UHGV virus genome: UHGV-0326994
Strand: one strand, 5' to 3'
DNA from: a virus
Length of the DNA stretch: 64,000 nt
The translations under genes were made by a program, and so were the position numbers. Shown piece after piece: positions 24,889-53,212 of the stretch. Position 1 is the stretch's first letter, and every line of letters begins with the position of its first letter. The notes under the pieces were generated by a model. It had not been told where the DNA came from and made no database searches. It saw only the letters and a list, made by a program, of their open reading frames with translations.

Positions 24889-25674
24889 TTAGTTCTTTGC
24901 GTCTAAGAAGGTAACTTCCGGTGAAGAGAAAATTTCCTCAACATCCTCATCAGTTCTTGCATAGATATATGTATCTGCATCACTGCCAAATGTTACTGCA
25001 ATCCTGTGATTGTTCTTTGACAGGTGGGTAACTAGAGCGTTACTTAGAGACATCTTTTCAACCGGAGGGTTACTTTGATGTATCTTGCCTTTTCTTCGTC
25101 TGAAGAGGGTAACTGCATCATTAGTGAACACTACTACACCTGCAAAGTATTCTGGTTCACAGTAGTTCTTCCAACCTGAGCGTAACTTGTGGTACATCTC
25201 TCCTTCGTAGACATACAGATACACATCTACACTCTTCATCACCTGATTGATAATAACTGTGACAGCTTGAGGGTCAAGTCCACCGATTCCTGCGCCAATC
25301 ATAGGTAAACCAACTTTCTTTAACTGGTTCACTTCACAGTATCTGTTGAGCTGGTTCAAAGATGACTCTAAAGCACTGTATCGGGCATCTTTACCAGTCT
25401 TAAGCTGAGTGTAAAGGTTAGCTATACGACCTTGTTTTAAACGTGCTACAGAGAAATTACCTAGCAAATTTTCACAGGGTTTGTGGCCTATACCACCTGC
25501 ATACAGATAAACTTCTGTATCAGTCTCATATGCTTTTGGGTAAAGTTTAGAAATCTTGTCAGCGATACCTGCACCCATTAAGTTCATACAGTTGCAACCG
25601 TGACCGATGACGTCAAACTTACCTTTATCAAATGCTGCAAAGATATCACCATTGATGATTTTTACAATACCCAT
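24889..25674 (-). CDS. macro domain (ADP-ribose binding/hydrolase-like) protein with C-terminal extension
   Basis: N-terminal motifs IINGDIF, VIGHGCNCMNLMGAGIA and LPMIGAGIGGLD match macro-domain signature blocks. Confidence 0.65.
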   Translation of the reverse strand: MGIVKIINGDIFAAFDKGKFDVIGHGCNCMNLMGAGIADKISKLYPKAYETDTEVYLYAGGIGHKPCENLLGNFSVARLKQGRIANLYTQLKTGKDARYSALESSLNQLNRYCEVNQLKKVGLPMIGAGIGGLDPQAVTVIINQVMKSVDVYLYVYEGEMYHKLRSGWKNYCEPEYFAGVVVFTNDAVTLFRRRKGKIHQSNPPVEKMSLSNALVTHLSKNNHRIAVTFGSDADTYIYARTDEDVEEIFSSPEVTFLDAKN

Positions 25675-29030: not shown

Positions 29031-30140
29031 TTAGATTTCACGTTTACGTTGAGAGATGAGTTCACCAGCAGTGCCAACGATGACATGCAAAGCTTCAGTC
29101 TTACCATCCCATGCTTTCAGCACTTTACGTTGGTTATCAACGATTGCTGCAACTTCATAACGAGAGGAACGCATCTTCATATCGTTGTAATCAGTTGGGA
29201 CAGATACAACATCTCGTGGATGGACACGAACCTTCAGAATTGTATCACCTGAGAAGCAACGAACATAATCCCAAGCACCAACATGAAGACCCTGAGAGCA
29301 AGTCACATTACGGTTATTATCAACCATCCAACGTGGCATTTCTACAATGTTACCCAAGTCATTAGGTACTCTGTAGGTGTGGGAGTCAACCAGCTTGCCT
29401 TCACGAGTAGAGACTTTCTTCCAACCAATGATGTAGCCTTCTTCATCAATTTCAACATCAAGGTGAGATACGAAGCCCCAAAGTTGTTCTACAGAATCTT
29501 TAGATGGGTTTTCCATCAGTTTTTCGAAGAACATTACAAGTCGTTCAAAGCCTTTATCACCAGTCTTCATCATGTGAAGAATACGGTCAACCAGAGTAGA
29601 ACGCATCTCAACAGCACCGTAGAATAACTTGTCACCTTTGATTGTGATAGCACCCTGAGTGAAGTTTTCGATAGACTTACGAATGTTCATCAGTTCAAAG
29701 GCTTTCTTGAACTCACCTTTCACAACATGAACTACAATCTCTTGATAGTTCGGATGAGTAGACTCAACAATTTCAGATTCTGAACCGTAAGTCATAATTA
29801 CAGAGTCACCAGTAATCATGTACTCAATCTTGTCATCTTTCTGCATAGCTTCATGCAGTTTATTTACCGGAGCTTTCTGTACAGAATCTTTAACAACCTT
29901 TTCAACTGGCTTGTCAGCTTTCTTTTTAAAGGTCTTAGCAACTTGTTTCAAAGTCTTTGTAGCTGGTGTAGAAGTTGCCTTCTTCTTCCCTTTTAAGGTT
30001 GCTTCATGACGCTCTACAGCACGACCGACTGAACGGGTTGAAGTATTGAATTTCTGTGCAATAGCTGTTTTGGTCAGCTTACCTTCTTTAACCAGTTTGT
30101 AAATTTCTGCGTCAATCTGTGCTTTAGTTTTAGTAGTCAT
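29031..30140 (-). CDS. rIIB: rIIB-like protein
   Basis: C-terminal half aligns by eye with T4 rIIB (LVDRIL, ENPSKD, TCSQGLHV, VHPRDVVSVPTDYNDMKMR); adjacent to rIIA. Confidence 0.75.
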   Translation of the reverse strand: MTTKTKAQIDAEIYKLVKEGKLTKTAIAQKFNTSTRSVGRAVERHEATLKGKKKATSTPATKTLKQVAKTFKKKADKPVEKVVKDSVQKAPVNKLHEAMQKDDKIEYMITGDSVIMTYGSESEIVESTHPNYQEIVVHVVKGEFKKAFELMNIRKSIENFTQGAITIKGDKLFYGAVEMRSTLVDRILHMMKTGDKGFERLVMFFEKLMENPSKDSVEQLWGFVSHLDVEIDEEGYIIGWKKVSTREGKLVDSHTYRVPNDLGNIVEMPRWMVDNNRNVTCSQGLHVGAWDYVRCFSGDTILKVRVHPRDVVSVPTDYNDMKMRSSRYEVAAIVDNQRKVLKAWDGKTEALHVIVGTAGELISQRKREI

Positions 30141-30219: not shown

Positions 30220-32586
30220 TTAATCGTAAATTGTAGTCCCTTCTGGAACACACTTCACATCAAAGCCTAAGAACTTACTCACTTCGATAGGTGACACTTT
30301 ATTCCAATCTAAATGAGAAAGCAAGAAGTTTTCTTGTTTTCTTTTTGAAAGATAGTTTGTCACCTTAATGACCATACGGTCACCAGCTTTCTTAATTTTC
30401 TTGTACAGCTTTGTGTCGTTGTCAAGGCATTCTTTCAAAGTTTGCAATCTACTAACAGTGTAAGTGTATGCAAACGGTGCAGCAACGTATTGGATTTTAC
30501 CGAACATTGCCTCTACAGCCTCTTCATTACCTTCTAGGAAGATAGTTTTGTTTGTATCCCGTGAATAGCAATAACCACGAGAAATCTTCCTGTTATTGAA
30601 TGTAAAGTTTCTGGCAATAATCCAGCTACTTGTAAGGTCAAGAACACCATTCATGTAGATGCGTGTCATATACCTGTTATGATTAATCCAATGAACATCA
30701 GTTAAGCTGTCGTTCAAGAGCTTCTCATCTACTTCAATCCAGTCTTCTGGTATCTTTTTCCAATTTGCTTTTCGGAAAACATAGACTGTCTTTCCAATAA
30801 CATTTGCAACTGACTTAGCTACATCTTCTGGAGATGAGCAAAAACACTCACCATCAACTGTGTCACCAACTGCCTTAATGTAAAGCTGAGGTTCTTCAAT
30901 TGTGTCTAAGTCTTCTGATACCTCTTTGTAGGAGGCTACACCTTCTGCTGGGACAGCTTTCCAGAGTTTTACAACACCTCTTACAGCTTCTTTACGCTGG
31001 TAATGGTGTTCCTTATCAGACATTTTCACAATCTTTAACAAGCTTTTATCAAGTCTGTGCAGATTGATTAAGTCATCTAACTCTTTTTCAGTAGAGAATA
31101 CAAAGACAATACCATTGTATCTGTGAAACAGACCTGACTCACTGGCATAGTCTCGACATGCACCACGCAAGATTTGGTTGCGTCCTACAGTCTTCTCAGT
31201 ACCATTTTTATTGCGACGGTCATTAATAACAAACAAAAACTGTTCAATTTGGCTTTTACGCATTGCGCCAAAGATATTGAACATACTTGCCTCTTGAGTG
31301 TAGGAAAGTGCTGTTGCACGAATCTTACTCTCTAAAGAGTTGAACTTGACATAAGCAACCGGATTGTACAGGAAGTCAACTTTAGGGATATTGTTTCCTT
31401 TGCTGTCAACCTTAATATTGCCTTTACCATCACGTTCATAAATAACTGAGCCGTCTTCTGCGTAAATAATCCCCCGACGAATGTTTAGTAATTCTTCTTC
31501 CAGAGACTCAAGTTTAACACCACCCCACTCTAGCTTTGGACACACAGCATTAAACATCTCTCGTGAGTTCAAACGTAACTCAGCATAAGCCTGTGCAGCG
31601 TCCATGAGTGTAGGTTGATTATTAACCCCCTTAATAACATCCCTTGTAATCGCTTCAGTTATCTTTTTAGTAGCCTCAATGATAACATTTTTTGTCGTAT
31701 CATTCATCTGCAATGCTTCACGAGAAGCTGCAATAGCAACTGAACCAATAGGCATGTAAATGTTTACAAGGTCTACACTCCTACGGAAAAATTCTGGCAA
31801 GACTTTGAAGAAATCATCTCCAAGTAGCGCTTCCATGTTAACTGGATAGGCAATATTACCCATCACCACATTAAACTCTGTCCTGTTACCACTAGAACGC
31901 CAGCTTTGCTTATGAATCATGGCATCATAGACACCCTCTTCACGGGCAATGACGTTCATATCTGCTAATACATCGTCGTACACAATATTACTTTCTGGTT
32001 TTACAGCAAAGTATGAGTATACATTACCAGCTTCTTCAAAGAACTTTGAGATACGATGGTCAGCAACTGCTACACGTACAGCTAAACCATTAGGCTCTTT
32101 TGTTGGGTTAGTGGTTAGCTTGGTTACTTGAGGAATACCATTCTCAAGATAAACAGAGTATTTATTAACAACACCATCAACGTAGCTCGATACTGTGAAT
32201 GACTGAGCAATTGCAAACGGTGACTTTGAACCGATACCCATTGCACCAATGTAGTCATTAGAGTCATTCTTTGTAGAAGCCCCGTAGTTTAGATACAAAC
32301 TCATAACTTTATCATGAGTCAATCCAGTTCCAAAATCACGAACTTCAAAGTAAGGCTCAAAACGAGTAGGCAAATGCACATGGAATGGGATGTTCTCTTT
32401 TCCAGCTTCTTTCTGAGCATCTACTGCGTTACATGACAGTTCACGAATAACTGCCCTTTCTTTAAATGTATATACACCAGAACTCAAAAGGCTGAACATT
32501 TCAGGTGTCATTGTAATCTGTGCTTGAGACGTCTCTAAAGAAGTTGAACTTTTAATCACTTCTGCGTGGTCGTTTACCATGCGCAT
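30220..32586 (-). CDS. rIIA: rIIA-like protein with GHKL-type ATPase fold motifs
   Basis: N-box ELSCNAVDA, G1 VRDFGTGL, G2 GAMGIGSKS; 788 aa; upstream of rIIB as in T4. Confidence 0.75.
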   Translation of the reverse strand: MRMVNDHAEVIKSSTSLETSQAQITMTPEMFSLLSSGVYTFKERAVIRELSCNAVDAQKEAGKENIPFHVHLPTRFEPYFEVRDFGTGLTHDKVMSLYLNYGASTKNDSNDYIGAMGIGSKSPFAIAQSFTVSSYVDGVVNKYSVYLENGIPQVTKLTTNPTKEPNGLAVRVAVADHRISKFFEEAGNVYSYFAVKPESNIVYDDVLADMNVIAREEGVYDAMIHKQSWRSSGNRTEFNVVMGNIAYPVNMEALLGDDFFKVLPEFFRRSVDLVNIYMPIGSVAIAASREALQMNDTTKNVIIEATKKITEAITRDVIKGVNNQPTLMDAAQAYAELRLNSREMFNAVCPKLEWGGVKLESLEEELLNIRRGIIYAEDGSVIYERDGKGNIKVDSKGNNIPKVDFLYNPVAYVKFNSLESKIRATALSYTQEASMFNIFGAMRKSQIEQFLFVINDRRNKNGTEKTVGRNQILRGACRDYASESGLFHRYNGIVFVFSTEKELDDLINLHRLDKSLLKIVKMSDKEHHYQRKEAVRGVVKLWKAVPAEGVASYKEVSEDLDTIEEPQLYIKAVGDTVDGECFCSSPEDVAKSVANVIGKTVYVFRKANWKKIPEDWIEVDEKLLNDSLTDVHWINHNRYMTRIYMNGVLDLTSSWIIARNFTFNNRKISRGYCYSRDTNKTIFLEGNEEAVEAMFGKIQYVAAPFAYTYTVSRLQTLKECLDNDTKLYKKIKKAGDRMVIKVTNYLSKRKQENFLLSHLDWNKVSPIEVSKFLGFDVKCVPEGTTIYD

Positions 32587-33473: not shown

Positions 33474-33497
33474 TTAAAAAGGCTCCCGTAGGAGCCT
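33474..33497 (-). terminator. intrinsic terminator
   Basis: Hairpin GGCTCCTACGGGAGCC with T-run on minus strand. Confidence 0.55.
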
Positions 33498-33511
33498 CTT
33501 ATCATATACTT

Positions 33512-35293
33512 TTAAAGCTGCTTGTCAATATTATTTCGAATATCACCAAGAGATGTGTAGCCATACTGCTCAGAATCACTAAAGACTAAGCGTAGAGCAC
33601 AAGCTGGATGTTCAAGTGCATCTGCAAAGCTCTGGAATCCATAACCATCTACAGCTTTCAGTTTATCACCATCCCACATAGGTGCTACACCACCAAAAGC
33701 AGACTTCTTAACACCGCTATCTGTTTTAGGGTCTTTTGCAAGCATAATCTCTTTACCACCAATGCTTGCAAGAGTCGCTTTAACAGCAAATGCAAAGGTG
33801 TCACGAGTCATGTACTGGTAAGTGTAAGAGCCTACGCCAAACACTACGTTAGAGCTTGCAAAACCCATTTCATACAGACGCTTCAGGATTTCGTTTGCAC
33901 GTTCCAGTGTGATAGAGTCACCATAGATAAGGCCAATGTGTTCATCCAGTACCTTAAAACCTTTGGAGTTGATAGTCCCTCCGAAGATGTTATACAGGGT
34001 CTTAATAGCCCCATCAATCTCTGCTACAGGGCGTGTTACAACGTTTGCAGAACCAACCATATAAGCGTTCTTCAACAGCACTGTATCAGCAACTTCAAAG
34101 TCTTCTCTGTCAACAACCATTTCGTAGCCTTCTGACAGTAGCCATCCAGCAATACCATAGCTGATGTTTTCAAGCTTCATATTCAGAACAGCATTCAACA
34201 TTGTGTCGCTGGCTTCCAACTTACTAAGGTGCTCATAATAAGCCTTTTTAGCGCACTCTAAGTGGATTGCTTTATAACCTGTGACAATATGTACAGGGTC
34301 TCCAGAGTCAGGACGAATTACCAGTTTACCGTCACGTTCCATAATCTCTTTGCGAAGTGCTGGTAAGATTTCTGACACAGTTCTCCAGAAGTTATAAGTA
34401 TCTGAAACAACACTTGCAATACCAGTCGGGTAAGTCTTTGTTAAGAAACGACGGAAGGTCTGCAACTCACCTTTAAAGCGTCTTTCCTCTTCAATCAATT
34501 CATTACCACCTTCCCAAGCAATGTTTGCACACATTACAGAGTGTTCAGTGGCTGGTACAGAACCACCAATATCAGAGACTGGGTAAGACTGTCCGTAGAT
34601 GCGTTTAGCTGTATATACAGCAGGGAAGCTATCAGTCCCTTTAAAGCTGGTCAAGTGACCTACAGCATTAAATGCGTCATCAGTAAAGCCGGACATACCA
34701 CGCATAGCAAAGTCATGGCACTGATAAGGTAAATGTAAGTCATTGTCACAAGTAAGGTCAGCCCACTTCTTACAGATGCGTTTGTAGTGCAATGCAATAG
34801 TTGCAATGGTACAAGCCTTCCAAATCTCAGCAGAGAAAGCATCTTCCAGATAACCTGCTACCCAATGAAAACCTGAAACAGTGTTCTGGAAGACAATCAT
34901 TGGTACACGCATCGGAACAACTGTACCTTCTTCTACAGCGTATACCTCAACTGGCAGATAGCCTAAGTCGTGAAGTGCTTCCCAATGTTCTCGACCAATA
35001 GCATCTTTACCAAGAACACCGTTCATGACTTCTAAGATTTCGTCAATTGCTTCTTTTTTATCACGTTCAAAGAAAGTGGCGTTCCAATGGTCTATCAAGT
35101 AATCTTTAACAAAACGTTGAATACCAAAAGCTACTACACCGTCAATTGCTAAGGGGCTGTTAAACCATTTGTCGCTACGTGGTGTCAGGTTGAACATCAA
35201 GTACTCTGTTGCGCTAGGATACTGGTAAACATGACCAGATTTGTAAGCATCTGCATTTAAACCTGCTGGTACTGCGTAAAGTGATTTAGTCAT
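33512..35293 (-). CDS. nicotinamide phosphoribosyltransferase family protein (NadV/Nampt-like; candidate Namat of a NAD+ reconstitution pathway)
   Basis: 593-aa ORF, Nampt-like by eye; immediately downstream of a PRPP-synthetase-family gene. Confidence 0.7.
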   Translation of the reverse strand: MTKSLYAVPAGLNADAYKSGHVYQYPSATEYLMFNLTPRSDKWFNSPLAIDGVVAFGIQRFVKDYLIDHWNATFFERDKKEAIDEILEVMNGVLGKDAIGREHWEALHDLGYLPVEVYAVEEGTVVPMRVPMIVFQNTVSGFHWVAGYLEDAFSAEIWKACTIATIALHYKRICKKWADLTCDNDLHLPYQCHDFAMRGMSGFTDDAFNAVGHLTSFKGTDSFPAVYTAKRIYGQSYPVSDIGGSVPATEHSVMCANIAWEGGNELIEEERRFKGELQTFRRFLTKTYPTGIASVVSDTYNFWRTVSEILPALRKEIMERDGKLVIRPDSGDPVHIVTGYKAIHLECAKKAYYEHLSKLEASDTMLNAVLNMKLENISYGIAGWLLSEGYEMVVDREDFEVADTVLLKNAYMVGSANVVTRPVAEIDGAIKTLYNIFGGTINSKGFKVLDEHIGLIYGDSITLERANEILKRLYEMGFASSNVVFGVGSYTYQYMTRDTFAFAVKATLASIGGKEIMLAKDPKTDSGVKKSAFGGVAPMWDGDKLKAVDGYGFQSFADALEHPACALRLVFSDSEQYGYTSLGDIRNNIDKQL

Positions 35294-35338
35294 CTTTTAG
35301 TCTCTCTCAAAATGGGGCTATGAAGCCCCTATAAAGTT

Positions 35339-36235
35339 TTAATCAAGGTTTGCTACAGTAACTTGACCATAATGTGTTAACCCACGGTCTTTAGCTTCCC
35401 CTAAAGAGTTTGTAGTGTAGATATGGTCAATACCATTGTCAAGTAAGTTTTCAACACCTTTAGAGAAGATACCATGTGTTACATAGAGTTCCACACGTTT
35501 TGCACCTGCTTCACGTAGGTGTTTCGCTGCCTCTATGAAGGTTCGTCCTCCATCACAAATATCATCCAGAATCATGACTGTTTTATCTGTCAAATCAACA
35601 TCATCAAGGATTCGCATACCAGTGATTTCACCAGTCTTGAGGTTACGTACTTTAGACATTGTGATGTATGGCTTATCCACTTCTTTAGCAGTCTCTGCAA
35701 TCTTCTTAGCAGCACCTGCATCTGGGGCTACTAAGTAATCAACCAGTGGGTCATTTGCATAGTGGACTGCAATTTCCTTTTGAGGAATACTCTGGAAGCA
35801 GTTAAACAGGTTATCTGGTACATAGCTGTGAGGGTCAACTGCACAGACTGCATCAAAACCCATTGCATTAACCTGTTGTGCAAACACTTTCAAAGCTGCT
35901 GCATCGCCTTTAAACATGTGACGGTCATAACGTGCATTTGGCAAATAGTAAAAGATAATGGTCTTCATAGCAAACTTATGGGGTACTAAATCATCAATTG
36001 CTTCTTTAGCAAGTGCCACAGCAAACAATGTGTCTTTATCATAACCTTTTACAATCATAATCACATTGTTGATGGATGATGCTGCATAAGCAGTGAAATC
36101 AACAAACTCTGGTGAAAAGTGTCCACCAATCTCACCAGAAGGGAATTGGATGATGTTAAACTCTTCTTCGTGAGTCCCTTTAGTGGGTGAATGGACTGTA
36201 ACACGGATAGATGTTTTCATAGTTTTCTCTCTCAA
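35339..36235 (-). CDS. ribose-phosphate pyrophosphokinase family protein (Prs-like; candidate Adps)
   Basis: Prs blocks FPSGEIGG, YLPNARYDR, VDPHS, VAPDAGAAKK, VMILDDICDGGRT, GAKRVELYVTHGIFS align with E. coli Prs motifs. Confidence 0.75.
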   Translation of the reverse strand: MREKTMKTSIRVTVHSPTKGTHEEEFNIIQFPSGEIGGHFSPEFVDFTAYAASSINNVIMIVKGYDKDTLFAVALAKEAIDDLVPHKFAMKTIIFYYLPNARYDRHMFKGDAAALKVFAQQVNAMGFDAVCAVDPHSYVPDNLFNCFQSIPQKEIAVHYANDPLVDYLVAPDAGAAKKIAETAKEVDKPYITMSKVRNLKTGEITGMRILDDVDLTDKTVMILDDICDGGRTFIEAAKHLREAGAKRVELYVTHGIFSKGVENLLDNGIDHIYTTNSLGEAKDRGLTHYGQVTVANLD

Positions 36236-36510
36236 TCAAAAGTTACGTTTGTTACTGCCATTGCAGATTTGCATTTTGCAGGGTCTACAATGTGATAAAG
36301 TACACTACAGTTGCCTGTGCTGTCTGGTACAGGCTTTACCCATTGTTGCTTGACAGTTGGTTCTCCTAAATCTTTGTATGAACCATCTGTAAAATTGTTT
36401 AACATCTCAAGTGCAATTGGTTCTGGAACATGACCTCGTATCATGTACATCTCACAACCATTACCACCTTCGCTAACTAATGGTAAAATCTCCCACTTTT
36501 CTTTAGCCAT
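36232..36510 (-). CDS. hypothetical protein (92 aa)
   Basis: ORF track; start overlaps stop of upstream gene. Confidence 0.45.
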   Translation of the reverse strand: MAKEKWEILPLVSEGGNGCEMYMIRGHVPEPIALEMLNNFTDGSYKDLGEPTVKQQWVKPVPDSTGNCSVLYHIVDPAKCKSAMAVTNVTFD

Positions 36511-37018
36511 TGTAAGTTGCCCTATAAACTGTCTCGAACTTCAACAGGAGAGATATTGCCAAATCTGTATAGTTGTTGTCAAGAACATCTGGCATATTAT
36601 TTTTGATATATTTCTCTTGTTCTTCATAGGTCATCTTAGGGGTGCTTAGAAGGTTATTTCCTTGCTTCTGGTTGTCAAGTTTAGTCTGGATAAACCAGTT
36701 TGCACAGTGATGCTCACCACCCTTTGTAACAGGTTTGTGGTGGCCTAATGTGAAGGATTGACTACCTGTGTATCTGCAAAGTTTATTGAGCACTGTAATG
36801 GTGTTCTTCACAACAAACAATTCATACAGATTATCTATAGTGTAGTGTGGGTAATAACGGAATAGTGCTCTTTCACGAGTACTTTCACGATTCCAGAGAA
36901 TCATGTGATTGGAGTTTGAGGGGTCGTATTGATGGGAGTCAATGAACTCTTGACGTTCCTCAAAGCTGAGTCTTAACACTGACATTGCAGCAGAACGTTT
37001 CAGGTTTGACAGATACAT
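36503..37018 (-). CDS. hypothetical protein, possible HNH-like nuclease
   Basis: Weak HNH-like stretch LGHHKPVTKGGEHHCANW; not conclusive. Confidence 0.4.
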   Translation of the reverse strand: MYLSNLKRSAAMSVLRLSFEERQEFIDSHQYDPSNSNHMILWNRESTRERALFRYYPHYTIDNLYELFVVKNTITVLNKLCRYTGSQSFTLGHHKPVTKGGEHHCANWFIQTKLDNQKQGNNLLSTPKMTYEEQEKYIKNNMPDVLDNNYTDLAISLLLKFETVYRATYNG

Positions 37019-37069
37019 TTTATCTCCAAAATAAAAAGGGAACCTTTACAGTCCCCTTATAGTATCTGT

Positions 37070-39431: not shown

Positions 39432-41576
39432 TTACATAGAAACCCTGTCACGAATCTCAGCAATTTTTGCATCATTCATTCGGGATTCACCTTTAATCTT
39501 AGTCCACCCAAGATAACCGCACACCCTGTTAATCACAGAGATATCGTGTGAATGGCAAACCTCACATTCTTCAACGTCAGCCTTTGGTCTGTTACCACAA
39601 TGCTCACAGATTGCTAAGTCAAAGTTAAGTCCCTGATAAAAACCTTTCAACATCCCTCTTGTAATACAACTTTTAAGTGCTATTAAGTTTTCTGGGTTAG
39701 CTACCCTGACATACTGGATTCTCCCACCTCTACAGATATGGAAGAATGGCTCTTCTAAGTCCTGCTTCTCAAATGGTGAGATGTCTGCTGCGACATTCAT
39801 ATGGAAACTGTTTGTAAAGTATTCCTTATCAGAAACACCTTTGATAACACCAAACATATCCCTGAACTGTTTTAGCTGAGTTCCACAAAGTGATTCTGCT
39901 GGAGTGCCATATACGGCATATAAGAAGCCATCTTCATCTTTAAACTCTTCAGTTTTCATGTTGATGTATGCCAGAACATCATATGCAAAACTGTAGCTTC
40001 CAACTTCATGAAGTCGTTTACCTTCAGCAAGAACAGACAACTCATCAAGCGCAGTAACCCCAAAAGAAGCTGTGAAAGATTTCACGATATCCCATCCAAC
40101 CTTGTCAGTAGATTTCTTAGTCCCTTTGTACAGACCACCTTGTGTGAATGCAAGAGGGTTAGAACTTGCTGGCATATTAGCAATCATTTCGTAGCGTTTC
40201 TTGTGGAAGCTACGAATCATCTCTAGGTACTTATCAAGCTCTTTCCAGAAATCTAAACCATTCTCTTTAGAGTACTGGTAAATCATTGGCAAGTTCAAAG
40301 ATACAGCACCAATGTTAGCGCGACCAACGTAAAACTCTTCCCCATCCTCATTAAGATATGGTGATAAGAAGGCTCTGCAACCCATCGGTGAAATTACCTT
40401 ACCAGAACGCTCAAAAGCCTCTGCTACAGCACCATGACCAGACACACTTAAGAAATCTGGATACATTGCTTTAGAGCAACACTCAATAGCTTTACTGTAC
40501 AGGTGACCTTGACAGATATTTTCATCATGTCTCTTCTGGTCGTAGATATAAACAAGTTTAGGGAATACAACAGGTTTTTTGCTCTTACCTTGTCCATTCA
40601 TACGAACATCTAGGAGAGTACTTGCAATCATGTATTGTAGTCGGTTGTCTTCATTAGACATATCTGAGTCAAGTAAACCAAATGTTAAAGTTGTGAATGC
40701 GAAATCACCACGGCTGCAAGGTACAGTGTTCAGTTTCATTTCAAGTGACTGAAAACCTTGAGTTAATTCAATCTGTAGCTGCTCCATGACATAGTTATGG
40801 TAATGTTCTTTAGGAATACCATAAGATGCTGCTTTCTCAGCATGGTAACGTAGAGACTTCTTAGCATACGGTACAAGTACCTTATCAATCTCTGCTAAAG
40901 TAAAACCACCAAATTGCTGTGCAGTTGCCGAAAGAACTACGTCACCAATAACCTGCAACGCTGACAGTACAGATTTAGGTTCACAGTACTCAATGCCGGA
41001 CATTTCAAAGCCACCTTTCAGGACTTTACCAATGTCAAACAGGCAACAGTTGATACCACCAAAAATCAGGTCTCTTAAATCGTGGATATAGATAAAGCCT
41101 TTTTCAATGGCTTCAAGTTCCTCTGGTGTTAGGTGATACTGCTTAAAGATTTCTTTAGTCAGGTAACCACGGATAATTGAACCTTTTGTAGAAATTAAAC
41201 TGCTGTCAAAGTTAGCATTTTCACGGTCACCTAAGAAGAGTGTATCTCTAGTCTTTTGGTAAAGCTCATCCCAATTTTGAGCAACCTCTTTACGGTAATT
41301 TCTATATGTTGAGTAAGACTCATAAATCTCGTGATTGACTTCTGCCAAAGCACCCTCAACAATACTGTGAATATCATTTACCGAGATTAGCAAATTATTC
41401 TGCTTAGTGGACTTTACCAGAATCCTCATAAATGCTGACTCAAGAGCTTGGGTAACATCTGGTGGAAGTTCTTTATACCCAACCCTGTTAGCTGACTTAG
41501 TTACTGCTGCTAAAACTTTTTTGATATCAGGTTCTTCAAGTGAGCCATTCTTTTTAATAATCTGTACTTTGTTCAT
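39432..41576 (-). CDS. nrdD: anaerobic ribonucleoside-triphosphate reductase (class III)
   Basis: C-terminal zinc-ribbon CEHCGN...CEVCHSHD and glycyl-radical motif RVCGYLG; 714 aa. Confidence 0.9.
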   Translation of the reverse strand: MNKVQIIKKNGSLEEPDIKKVLAAVTKSANRVGYKELPPDVTQALESAFMRILVKSTKQNNLLISVNDIHSIVEGALAEVNHEIYESYSTYRNYRKEVAQNWDELYQKTRDTLFLGDRENANFDSSLISTKGSIIRGYLTKEIFKQYHLTPEELEAIEKGFIYIHDLRDLIFGGINCCLFDIGKVLKGGFEMSGIEYCEPKSVLSALQVIGDVVLSATAQQFGGFTLAEIDKVLVPYAKKSLRYHAEKAASYGIPKEHYHNYVMEQLQIELTQGFQSLEMKLNTVPCSRGDFAFTTLTFGLLDSDMSNEDNRLQYMIASTLLDVRMNGQGKSKKPVVFPKLVYIYDQKRHDENICQGHLYSKAIECCSKAMYPDFLSVSGHGAVAEAFERSGKVISPMGCRAFLSPYLNEDGEEFYVGRANIGAVSLNLPMIYQYSKENGLDFWKELDKYLEMIRSFHKKRYEMIANMPASSNPLAFTQGGLYKGTKKSTDKVGWDIVKSFTASFGVTALDELSVLAEGKRLHEVGSYSFAYDVLAYINMKTEEFKDEDGFLYAVYGTPAESLCGTQLKQFRDMFGVIKGVSDKEYFTNSFHMNVAADISPFEKQDLEEPFFHICRGGRIQYVRVANPENLIALKSCITRGMLKGFYQGLNFDLAICEHCGNRPKADVEECEVCHSHDISVINRVCGYLGWTKIKGESRMNDAKIAEIRDRVSM

Positions 41577-46065: not shown

Positions 46066-46390
46066 GGTATTTCTCCAAGTTTCTTTTTAGATATAACCAA
46101 CCATAGTCAGTTCTTTCTACACCCATGAAGAGTGGAGCCATCACAACTTTACCAAAAGTATTCCTGTGTTGACAGATTTCAAAAGAATACTCTTTATCAA
46201 TATCAATCCCGTATTTGTACAGGACTGCTTTTAAAACTTGTTCATTGTCCAGAAGTGTATCTGGAGTCTCACCATACTTCTCAAGTAACGGGTCATTCAT
46301 AAACACCGTCATAGAGATATTGTAGTTTGAGAAGTGGCTCTTCTGAGCCACACCTTCTTTATTAATGTTCTGTGAATCCATTATAACCAA
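46058..46390 (-). CDS. hypothetical protein (110 aa)
   Basis: ORF track. Confidence 0.45.
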   Translation of the reverse strand: MVIMDSQNINKEGVAQKSHFSNYNISMTVFMNDPLLEKYGETPDTLLDNEQVLKAVLYKYGIDIDKEYSFEICQHRNTFGKVVMAPLFMGVERTDYGWLYLKRNLEKYRV

Positions 46391-47117
46391 CCCCTTTTAA
46401 CCAGCACTTCAGGTTATTAGCATCATAATTCAGTTTCGGGTATGAGGTTACATGGAACTGCTCACCATCATAGTAGACAATATCTGCAATCCATAGTCCG
46501 TTCTCTTTACAGAAGTCTTTATCTGCTTTAGAGGTAATTGGATTAACTTCTACAAAACCATCTACACCCAAATCCTTTAAGCTACCTACAATACCTTTGC
46601 AGATAACGCATGTCTCAGATACTACCACAAAAAGTTCTTGGCTTTCAAGTTCTACAATGTATTCACCAAGCTGTACTTTAGGGAGATTCGATTGCTTCAT
46701 AATCTTCCCATCGGATGCACGCACAATTGCATACCATTCTTTACCATCAACCACTGACATTCTGACAATACAATCTTGACCAGTACGCTTCTCAATATCT
46801 GCAAGACGTTTTAAAGCTTCTTCATAGTCATCTGTGTACTTCAGGTCATTATTATGGCAAACAGCTTCCATAGCACCATTATGGTCATGTTGTGACAGGT
46901 AAATCAAACCGTCGAGAACATATTGCAAATCTGCCTGAGCATCCAGTGTCTCAATGGGGTCTTTCTCTTCAATTGCTTTTACAAGCTCTTTTGCTTCTTC
47001 AAGCATACACAGAGATTGAGATTTCAAAGACTCCCAATACTCATCACTGTAGGGTTGCTTTTGAGTGTTTCCACAACGAAGATTCCAGTTTTTTACTGAT
47101 TCTCTTGAGTTAAACAT
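46362..47117 (-). CDS. hypothetical protein, possible MazG-like N-terminal domain
   Basis: Acidic helical block LEEAKELVKAIEE...LDAQADLQYVLDGL resembles MazG/HisE pyrophosphohydrolase motifs; weak. Confidence 0.4.
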   Translation of the reverse strand: MFNSRESVKNWNLRCGNTQKQPYSDEYWESLKSQSLCMLEEAKELVKAIEEKDPIETLDAQADLQYVLDGLIYLSQHDHNGAMEAVCHNNDLKYTDDYEEALKRLADIEKRTGQDCIVRMSVVDGKEWYAIVRASDGKIMKQSNLPKVQLGEYIVELESQELFVVVSETCVICKGIVGSLKDLGVDGFVEVNPITSKADKDFCKENGLWIADIVYYDGEQFHVTSYPKLNYDANNLKCWLKGVGYNGFTEH

Positions 47118-52468: not shown

Positions 52469-53212
52469 TTAAACTTTAATGATGGCTCTTAGCTTGTTCT
52501 CAAGGTCTGCAAGAGTACCATTATTATGAATAATGTCACGCTCATATTTTGTAGAAATCCCATTTTCTGAAACATGTGATGAAACTTTGTCCACATTGTC
52601 TCTTTTTACTTCAATAGTTTGGTGTGCAAATCTGCTCAGCCATTCAGCTTCAGAGTCAAATCTTAAATCACTGATTAAGACAAAACCATATTGATTTCTA
52701 AGTGAGCACATTTCATGGAATCTAACCATTCTTTTTTCAAGGTCTTTAGACCAGAACTTGTCGCCCATTACTTTACGGACAACTTCAGTGCCCCAAATCT
52801 GTTGAATTTGTCTTGATGAGAATTTATACTTTTTGCTAAACCCCAGACGTGTCAATAGAGTCGGTTTAGCAACCTTCTTAAGCTCCATGGTTAATCGTCC
52901 GGTTAACTCTGACATAAGCTTGAAGTCCATATGGTAACGTTCATCTCTGAAGGTGAACTCCATAGCTTCCGTAACTTTAAACATCAGTTCAGGATATGAT
53001 AAGTCAAATACCTGTGGAGTCTCTTTAGTTTCACCATACAGGTCATTCCAAGTCAGGTCAAATATCTTTGATGCAGACAGTTTAAGGTTGTCTGCAAAGG
53101 CCATTACAGCAACATTGTAGCCGTACTCATCCTCTAAGATGTTCTTCACAATAGAACATGAGGTGTCTTTTCCAGAACGTGCCTTTCCAGTAAATGCGAT
53201 AATATTACTCAT
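52469..53212 (-). CDS. deoxynucleoside monophosphate kinase
   Basis: N-terminus IIAFTGKARSGKDT parallels T4 gp1 dNMP kinase P-loop (GVKRSGKDT); 247 aa. Confidence 0.65.
   Translation of the reverse strand: MSNIIAFTGKARSGKDTSCSIVKNILEDEYGYNVAVMAFADNLKLSASKIFDLTWNDLYGETKETPQVFDLSYPELMFKVTEAMEFTFRDERYHMDFKLMSELTGRLTMELKKVAKPTLLTRLGFSKKYKFSSRQIQQIWGTEVVRKVMGDKFWSKDLEKRMVRFHEMCSLRNQYGFVLISDLRFDSEAEWLSRFAHQTIEVKRDNVDKVSSHVSENGISTKYERDIIHNNGTLADLENKLRAIIKV

Follow-up and report, generated by a model that had tools for sequence, protein, structure and literature searches.

Organization of the locus

The window considered here is a stretch of 64,000 nucleotides from the virus genome UHGV-0326994. Two adjacent genes on its minus strand very probably constitute the NARP1 system, made up of the enzymes Adps and Namat, of a Felix O1-like phage. 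The assignment draws on orthology, signature residues, fold, gene order and the absence of a nicotinamide mononucleotide (NMN) adenylyltransferase (NMNAT). The upstream gene, adps (35339-36220, ATG start), is predicted from Pfam matches and orthology to encode a Prs-like ADP-ribose (ADPR) pyrophosphokinase of 293 amino acids. A spacer of 45 nucleotides separates it from namat (33512-35293), whose predicted product, a Nampt-like nicotinamide ADP-ribose transferase of 593 amino acids, was assigned from Pfam, orthology, a clamp motif and fold. Pfam recognizes Pribosyltran (E 1.2e-11) and Pribosyl_synth (E 3e-9) in the open reading frame (ORF) at 35339-36235, and NAPRTase (E 1.2e-34) together with NAMPT_N in the ORF at 33512-35293.

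The sequence-only reading had proposed two neighbouring genes on the same strand, and both ORFs and Pfam confirm the pair. Its outer limit for adps, position 36235, needs correction. At this position the open frame merely has its first TTG, which overlaps the stop codon of the preceding gene. The ATG at 36220 is preceded by a GAGAGAGA ribosome-binding site and yields a protein of 293 residues, which is the annotated length of the orthologue in phage Bas63 (see below). It is likely that translation starts at this ATG and not at the TTG.

The spacer between the two genes contains a GC hairpin on the minus strand (35314-35329; GGGGCT-TCAT-AGCCCC, with a stem of 6 bp, followed by ATTTTG; -12.2 kcal/mol by RNAfold). 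Its stem is conserved in Bas63 and its loop is different. Possibly it acts as a partial terminator or attenuator, or it stabilizes the transcript. A scan for terminators (stem plus T run) found a hairpin with a 10-bp stem 12 nucleotides past the namat stop codon (33477-33500, minus strand); it is conserved in Bas63 (-16.6 kcal/mol). Another terminator-like hairpin from the scan, at 37036-37058 on the minus strand and likewise conserved in Bas63, probably marks the upstream limit of the transcription unit. The two bracket four genes, namely the orthologues of Bas63 genes 77 and 78, adps and namat. The gene 77 orthologue (36503-37018, minus strand; 171 amino acids, 98% identical to Bas63_0077), with a weak HNH-like PHROG match, lies in the same terminator-bounded unit as NARP1 but outside NARP1 chemistry. 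The gene 78 orthologue (36232-36510, minus strand; 92 amino acids, 97% identical to Bas63_0078) directly precedes adps. It matches phrog_4726, a family of unassigned function, and gave no Pfam match.

Relation to the founding NARP1 operon

At the nucleotide level, the locus shows 94-96% identity with many phages of E. coli, Salmonella and Shigella that belong to the genus Felixounavirus (257 matching records). The first 25 kb of the window show the same affiliation, and for the window as such the identity with many records is 92-95%. By these matches, the window is a Felixounavirus (Felix O1-like) genome. NARP1 was discovered as genes 79-80 of a member of this genus, the BASEL phage Bas63 (JohannRWettstein; Osterman et al., bioRxiv 10.1101/2024.02.11.579819). 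When compared with the Bas63 reference genome (MZ501086), the window Adps is 81% identical in amino acid sequence to Bas63_0079 and the window Namat is 98% identical to Bas63_0080. Ten flanking genes are collinear between the two phages and 83-99% identical. Genus, gene order, neighbours, spacer hairpin and flanking terminators are thus all shared with Bas63.

The difference between the two operons resides in the 5' third of adps (35950-36220), which is only 59-69% identical to the Bas63 allele at the nucleotide level, whereas identity is about 94% for namat and the genes around the pair. Such a divergent segment within well-conserved surroundings suggests recombination inside adps. As judged from the sequences, two N-terminal Adps alleles circulate in Felixounavirus, and the one found in the window is the common one of the genus.

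In the proposed pathway, host NADase defences (SIR2, TIR, SEFIR and similar) would cleave nicotinamide adenine dinucleotide (NAD+) to ADPR and nicotinamide. Adps would then carry out the ATP-dependent pyrophosphorylation of ADPR at C1'', producing ADPR-PP. Namat would let nicotinamide displace the pyrophosphate of ADPR-PP, forming NAD+ directly, with neither NMN nor an NMNAT involved. Purified SPbetaL1 enzymes indeed convert ADPR and ATP to ADPR-PP and, upon addition of nicotinamide, to NAD+; this chemistry has been demonstrated in vitro for the SPbetaL1, P. foliorum and DyoEdafos enzymes only. By analogy with these homologues and with the Bas63 orthologues, the proteins of the present phage presumably perform the same chemistry and serve the same anti-defence function.

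The genetic evidence comes from Bas63 itself. Deletion of the operon renders the phage sensitive to SIR2-HerA, and in infected cells ADPR-PP accumulates only if operon and defence occur together (bioRxiv 10.1101/2024.02.11.579819). According to the same work, Bas63 continues to overcome the defence when the host is a pncC nadR double mutant. A second, independent study with knockouts across the genome found that plating on Sir2-HerA fell by 1e4-1e6 when g79 or g80 was deleted, and that the effects on the Ec86 retron and hhe were weaker.

Given that it has been published in the very genus of its discovery, the system is already known. The present finding adds one member to a described anti-defence pathway. 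Its value is that of a correct annotation, as public records label the two proteins ribose-phosphate pyrophosphokinase and nicotinamide or nicotinate phosphoribosyltransferase (NadV). Felixounaviruses that carry the pair should escape NAD+ depletion of the SIR2, TIR and SEFIR types, a property of relevance to phage therapy.

Signature residues and fold of Namat

The signature of Namat proteins, the SCH clamp motif, was defined along with the crystal structures of SPbetaL1 Namat (9W5W/9W5X; PMC12774641). In the window protein this motif reads GSYTYQYMTRD (residues 488-498) and is identical to that of Bas63 Namat. Two negative controls lack the aromatic clamp residues at this site, NadV of H. 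ducreyi (GAQTYQRNTRD) and Nampt of Xanthomonas (Xcc; GGALLQKVDRD). A Namat-type motif is found in every one of the 120 best database homologues of the window protein. The clamp loop (SCL), which is defined by Arg, Lys or Tyr as its third residue plus an adenine-stacking residue, has the sequence S40-D41-K42-W43 in the window Namat. The same residues occur in Bas63 Namat, which was modelled as the Lys-plus-next-residue type (PMC12774641). SPbetaL1 Namat differs in using R40 in this loop, as opposed to K42-W43.

The catalytic core is conserved. H251, R327, D221, D329, F195 and Y17 of the window protein correspond to the phospho-His, Arg306, Asp215, Asp308, Phe189 and Tyr15 of SPbetaL1 Namat. All 21 ligand contacts of the latter are either identical (D15, Y17, F195, R198, D221, A248, H251, R327, D329, G458, D459, G488, S489, Y494, T496, R497 and D498) or conservatively replaced (K42, A196, S460 and Y490) in the window Namat. 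An AlphaFold2 (AF2) model was predicted with high confidence (predicted local distance difference test, pLDDT, 93; predicted template modelling score, pTM, 0.91). Its top fold match is Namat 9W5W/9W5X (E 6.5e-54, template modelling score, TM, 0.95).

Overall sequence similarity was not retained as a decisive test. The best matches in the PDB are 9W5W/9W5X (E 1e-127), but H. ducreyi NadV follows at a modest distance (E 5.5e-104), with human NAMPT further away (1e-40). Because the gap to NadV is modest, the verdict rests on orthology and the clamp residues. NCBIfam does not separate Namat from NadV either, since both pass NF006629; only the contrast between Adps and Prs is informative in that collection. 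According to the sequence-only reading, motifs alone could not tell true Adps and Namat from ordinary Prs and NadV. The clamp motif, taken with orthology, settles this question for NARP1.

When aligned with SPbetaL1 Namat, the window protein has an insertion of about 88 amino acids (residues 340-427, positions 34013-34276 on the minus strand), which forms a high-confidence folded alpha/beta subdomain in the AF2 model. A further insert of 11 amino acids occupies residues 267-277. The larger insertion falls at a hot spot of length variation in the family (19-101 amino acids). Long inserts of the window type are found in Ounavirinae-like phages, and the long inserts of other lineages look unrelated. 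The structural study of Namat (PMC12774641) does not discuss the insertion subdomain. Foldseek was run on whole models, in which neither this insertion nor the C-terminal domain of the Macro protein described below is resolved separately.

Distinguishing Adps from Prs

Adps was assigned by comparison with hidden Markov models (HMM) and by BLAST, since no motif that discriminates Adps from Prs has been published. In BLASTP, the window protein scores 120 bits with VPG01 Adps (42% identity), 100 bits with SPbetaL1 Adps (35%) and 64 bits with E. coli Prs (b1207; 30%). Its K190 aligns with the catalytic loop residue K162 of SPbetaL1 Adps, which is equivalent to K197 of B. subtilis Prs and for which mutation data have been published. 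SPbetaL1 Adps does not use ribose-5-phosphate.

The window Adps falls below every Prs equivalog or subfamily cut-off of NCBIfam (93 versus 297 bits for NF002320, 106 versus 296 bits for NF002095). It passes only the broad model TIGR01251 (123 bits, cut-off 113). SPbetaL1 Adps likewise stays below all Prs equivalog cut-offs, whereas E. coli Prs reaches 533 bits. Scores this far below the cut-offs speak against a housekeeping Prs. It must be noted that housekeeping Prs (E. coli b1207) and NadV (H. ducreyi, PDB 9KE8) belong to the same superfamilies and folds as the window pair; what sets the pair apart is the score on the Prs model and, for NadV, the missing aromatic clamp residues. The HMM and structure comparisons that the sequence-only reading had proposed as a check point to NARP1 for both proteins, Adps failing the Prs equivalog cut-offs and Namat finding its best fold match in 9W5W/9W5X. 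Its suggestion of NARP1 is also borne out by the syntenic orthology with Bas63, the Namat clamp motif and the BLAST behaviour of Adps.

The NARP1 system of the Bacillus phage SPbetaL1 resembles that of the window in its adjacent Adps and Namat genes, the catalytic Lys of Adps, the ligand residues and clamp motif of Namat, and the fold of the latter. It differs by moderate sequence identity (35% for Adps, 47% for Namat) and by the absence of the two Namat inserts. As an aside, the single profile phrog_12872 (547 positions) aligns with Adps in its first half and with Namat in its second, which suggests that some phages have fused Adps-Namat proteins.

Search for NMNAT and for accessory genes

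Pfam was used to scan 40 other ORFs of the window (58-471 amino acids), a set from which ORFs under about 120 amino acids and genes of known function were left out. No match to a cytidylyltransferase/NMNAT (CTP_transf_like), NadR or Nudix domain was obtained in these ORFs, and no NMNAT is annotated in the complete Bas63 genome. The sequence-only reading had seen no NMNAT near the pair, an observation that holds over this wider search. The remainder of the genome, beyond the window, is the counterpart of the Bas63 structural module. The lack of an NMNAT in the scanned ORFs, combined with the structural nature of the remainder, excludes NARP2 (Nampt plus NMNAT), and the Namat clamp motif speaks against it as well. 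NARP2 of Vibrio phage KVP40, which consists of NadV/Nampt and an NMNAT-Nudix protein (NatV), has in common with the window pair a phage Nampt-family enzyme that restores NAD+. However, it needs the NMNAT and uses phosphoribosyl pyrophosphate (PRPP), whereas the Nampt-like enzyme of the window has the Namat clamp.

Preprints of 2026 describe variants of NARP1 with an operon-embedded Macro gene (NARP1-AP) or with RyDEP. The RyR domain (PF02026, RyDEP glycosidase) has no match in the NARP1 neighbours or in the other scanned ORFs. Nor does Pfam detect a Macro domain in the immediate neighbours of NARP1, where the operon definition of NARP1-AP (within two genes) would place it.

A Macro-domain protein is nevertheless encoded in the window (24889-25674, on the minus strand like NARP1), 7.8 kb and about a dozen genes downstream of the pair. 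It has 261 amino acids, belongs to an Adpp/Poa1p-like family (Pfam Macro, E 2.8e-7, above the cut-off) and carries an extra, beta-rich C-terminal domain. The protein is the orthologue of Bas63_0095, which is annotated as a "putative phosphatase". Over roughly its first 157 residues, it shows 27-37% identity with Macro proteins from the NARP1 operons of phages of Vibrio, Pseudomonas and Acinetobacter, among them Gary Adpp, a verified ADPR-1''-phosphate phosphatase (bioRxiv 10.64898/2026.01.28.702374). It shares with them every family-invariant residue. At the profile level it matches Poa1p (E 2e-11), and the fold of its AF2 model (pLDDT 89) matches TARG1, DarG and Poa1p (TM 0.77 for the last). 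DarG is also its best NCBIfam match, far below the cut-off of that model. A glycohydrolase of the TARG1/DarG type is unlikely, since both catalytic residues of TARG1, K84 and D125, are replaced (Q90 and G131).

These features allow an extension of the NARP1 reading that we consider tentative and less probable than not. The Macro protein may act as a phosphatase and turn ADPR-1''-phosphate, which RES-type NAD+ phosphorylases (aRES, for example) form, into ADPR for use by Adps and Namat, so that the phage would possess a split form of NARP1-AP. The likeness to the operon-embedded proteins, with all family-invariant residues shared, points in this direction, as does the match to the Poa1p fold in the absence of the catalytic Lys and Asp of TARG1 and DarG. 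Moreover, in Kolesnikvirus, a second genus of the Ounavirinae, NARP1 is again followed by a distant Macro gene at similar spacing. The published survey of NARP1 inspected no more than two neighbouring genes in each direction, and neither Escherichia nor Salmonella phages appear in its table. Taken together, the reach of that survey, the family likeness and the Kolesnikvirus arrangement make a split NARP1-AP possible. The operon-embedded systems of Vibrio phages Gary and VPG01 (Adps-Adpp-Namat; bioRxiv 10.64898/2026.01.28.702374) are related to the window proteins at 42% (Adps), 39% (Namat) and 27-29% (Macro) identity. They differ in having the Macro gene within the operon and in lacking the additional C-terminal domain of about 100 residues.

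Other observations argue against this extension. Phage records with a member of the Macro family number about 2,850, 999 of them from Escherichia phages, while only 177 Escherichia phage records have a Namat/Nampt homologue. With such an excess, the family is not tied to NARP1. The window protein lacks the almost invariant Trp of the GGDW motif, and the extra C-terminal domain, which is restricted to Ounavirinae-like phages, is left unexplained. With a polynucleotide kinase encoded nearby, a role in disposing of an RNA-repair by-product is equally possible. Should the split arrangement prove real, the phosphatase-assisted pathway would be much commoner than the figure of 15%, obtained by counting operon-embedded genes, suggests, and Ounavirinae should resist aRES. 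The arms race from NADase to NARP1, aRES and NARP1-AP would then take in a large group of phages of E. coli and Salmonella, and accessory genes of NARP1 need not be operon-linked.

Alternative roles for the pair

Several points weigh against NARP1 as the function of the pair. The in vitro chemistry derives from SPbetaL1, and not from this phage or Bas63, and identity to the SPbetaL1 homologues is only 35% for Adps and 47% for Namat. The N-terminal domain of the window Adps differs from the Bas63 domain that was tested genetically, their 5' thirds being 59-69% identical in nucleotides. Adps and Prs are not separated by any published sequence signature. Finally, Namat retains PRPP-dependent NMN synthesis in vitro (PMC12774641), from which it follows that a minor classical contribution is possible.

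The last point leads to classical salvage as the function of the pair. The Prs-like protein would supply PRPP, the Nampt-like protein would make NMN from it and a host or phage NMNAT would complete NAD+, in the manner of NARP2 or of the annotated Prs/NadV. We regard this as very improbable, although it agrees with the public annotation (ribose-phosphate pyrophosphokinase plus nicotinamide phosphoribosyltransferase), with the passing of NF006629 and with the NMN made from PRPP in vitro. It would require an NMNAT, for which neither the scanned ORFs of the window nor the Bas63 annotation provides a candidate. The success of Bas63 in the pncC nadR host and the failure of SPbetaL1 Adps to use ribose-5-phosphate also contradict it. 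So do the Namat-specific aromatic clamp and the position of Adps far below the Prs equivalog cut-offs.

Least probable of all is that the pair boosts the supply of PRPP and nucleotides for phage DNA replication as part of a nucleotide-metabolism block (ribonucleotide reductase, deoxynucleotide monophosphate (dNMP) kinase, thymidylate synthase): it does sit among NrdA/B/D/G, dNMP kinase and MazG-like genes, but this would leave the obligatory pairing with a Namat-type enzyme unexplained and is contradicted by the defence-specific phenotype and the defence-dependent accumulation of ADPR-PP in Bas63.

Bacterial relatives

The closest non-phage homologues of the window pair are chromosomal. An operon of Klebsiella michiganensis (4211-7491 of its chromosomal stretch) encodes a Prs-like protein of 289 amino acids, which shows 49% identity with the window Adps and 28% with E. 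coli Prs, as well as a 496-residue protein with the Namat motif. It is divergent from nrtR, and two palindromes are present in the spacer. In a study of NrtR-controlled "prs-nadV" operons, ADPR was the best anti-repressor, while the presence of a dedicated second Prs paralogue was left unexplained (Rodionov et al. 2008). By analogy with the phage pair, such NrtR-regulated, ADPR-induced operons may be bacterial NARP1 systems that are induced by their own substrate, a reading that would resolve the puzzle of the second Prs. In the searched library, no paper contains both terms, NrtR operons and NARP1; the link is only hinted at in the discussion by Osterman et al. (bioRxiv 10.1101/2024.02.11.579819).

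Surrounding genes

The genes around NARP1 include other orthologues of Bas63 genes with a reported role in counter-defence. Bas63 gp77 is reported to counter the Ec67 retron (PhageMaP preprint), and the Bas63 rIIA and rIIB proteins are reported to counter QatABCD. The rIIA (30220-32586) and rIIB (29031-30140) orthologues, both on the minus strand, and the gp77 orthologue flank NARP1. This gives the region of about 29-37 kb the appearance of a counter-defence cluster.

Further away on the minus strand, a dNMP kinase gene is found at 52469-53212 (Pfam DNMK). Phage kinases of this type are reported to trigger Kongming, an NAD+-depleting system that NARP1 counters. A protein of 251 amino acids with a MazG/PRA-PH-like pyrophosphohydrolase domain (46362-47117, minus strand; Pfam E 6e-6) is encoded in the replication and nucleotide-metabolism block. 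A single intact ORF of 714 amino acids (39432-41576, minus strand) specifies the anaerobic ribonucleotide reductase NrdD, whereas the two annotated pieces of the Bas63 gene lie on either side of a homing-endonuclease gene. A cluster of 25 tRNA genes occupies 588-6354 on the minus strand; such clusters are typical of Felix O1-like phages.

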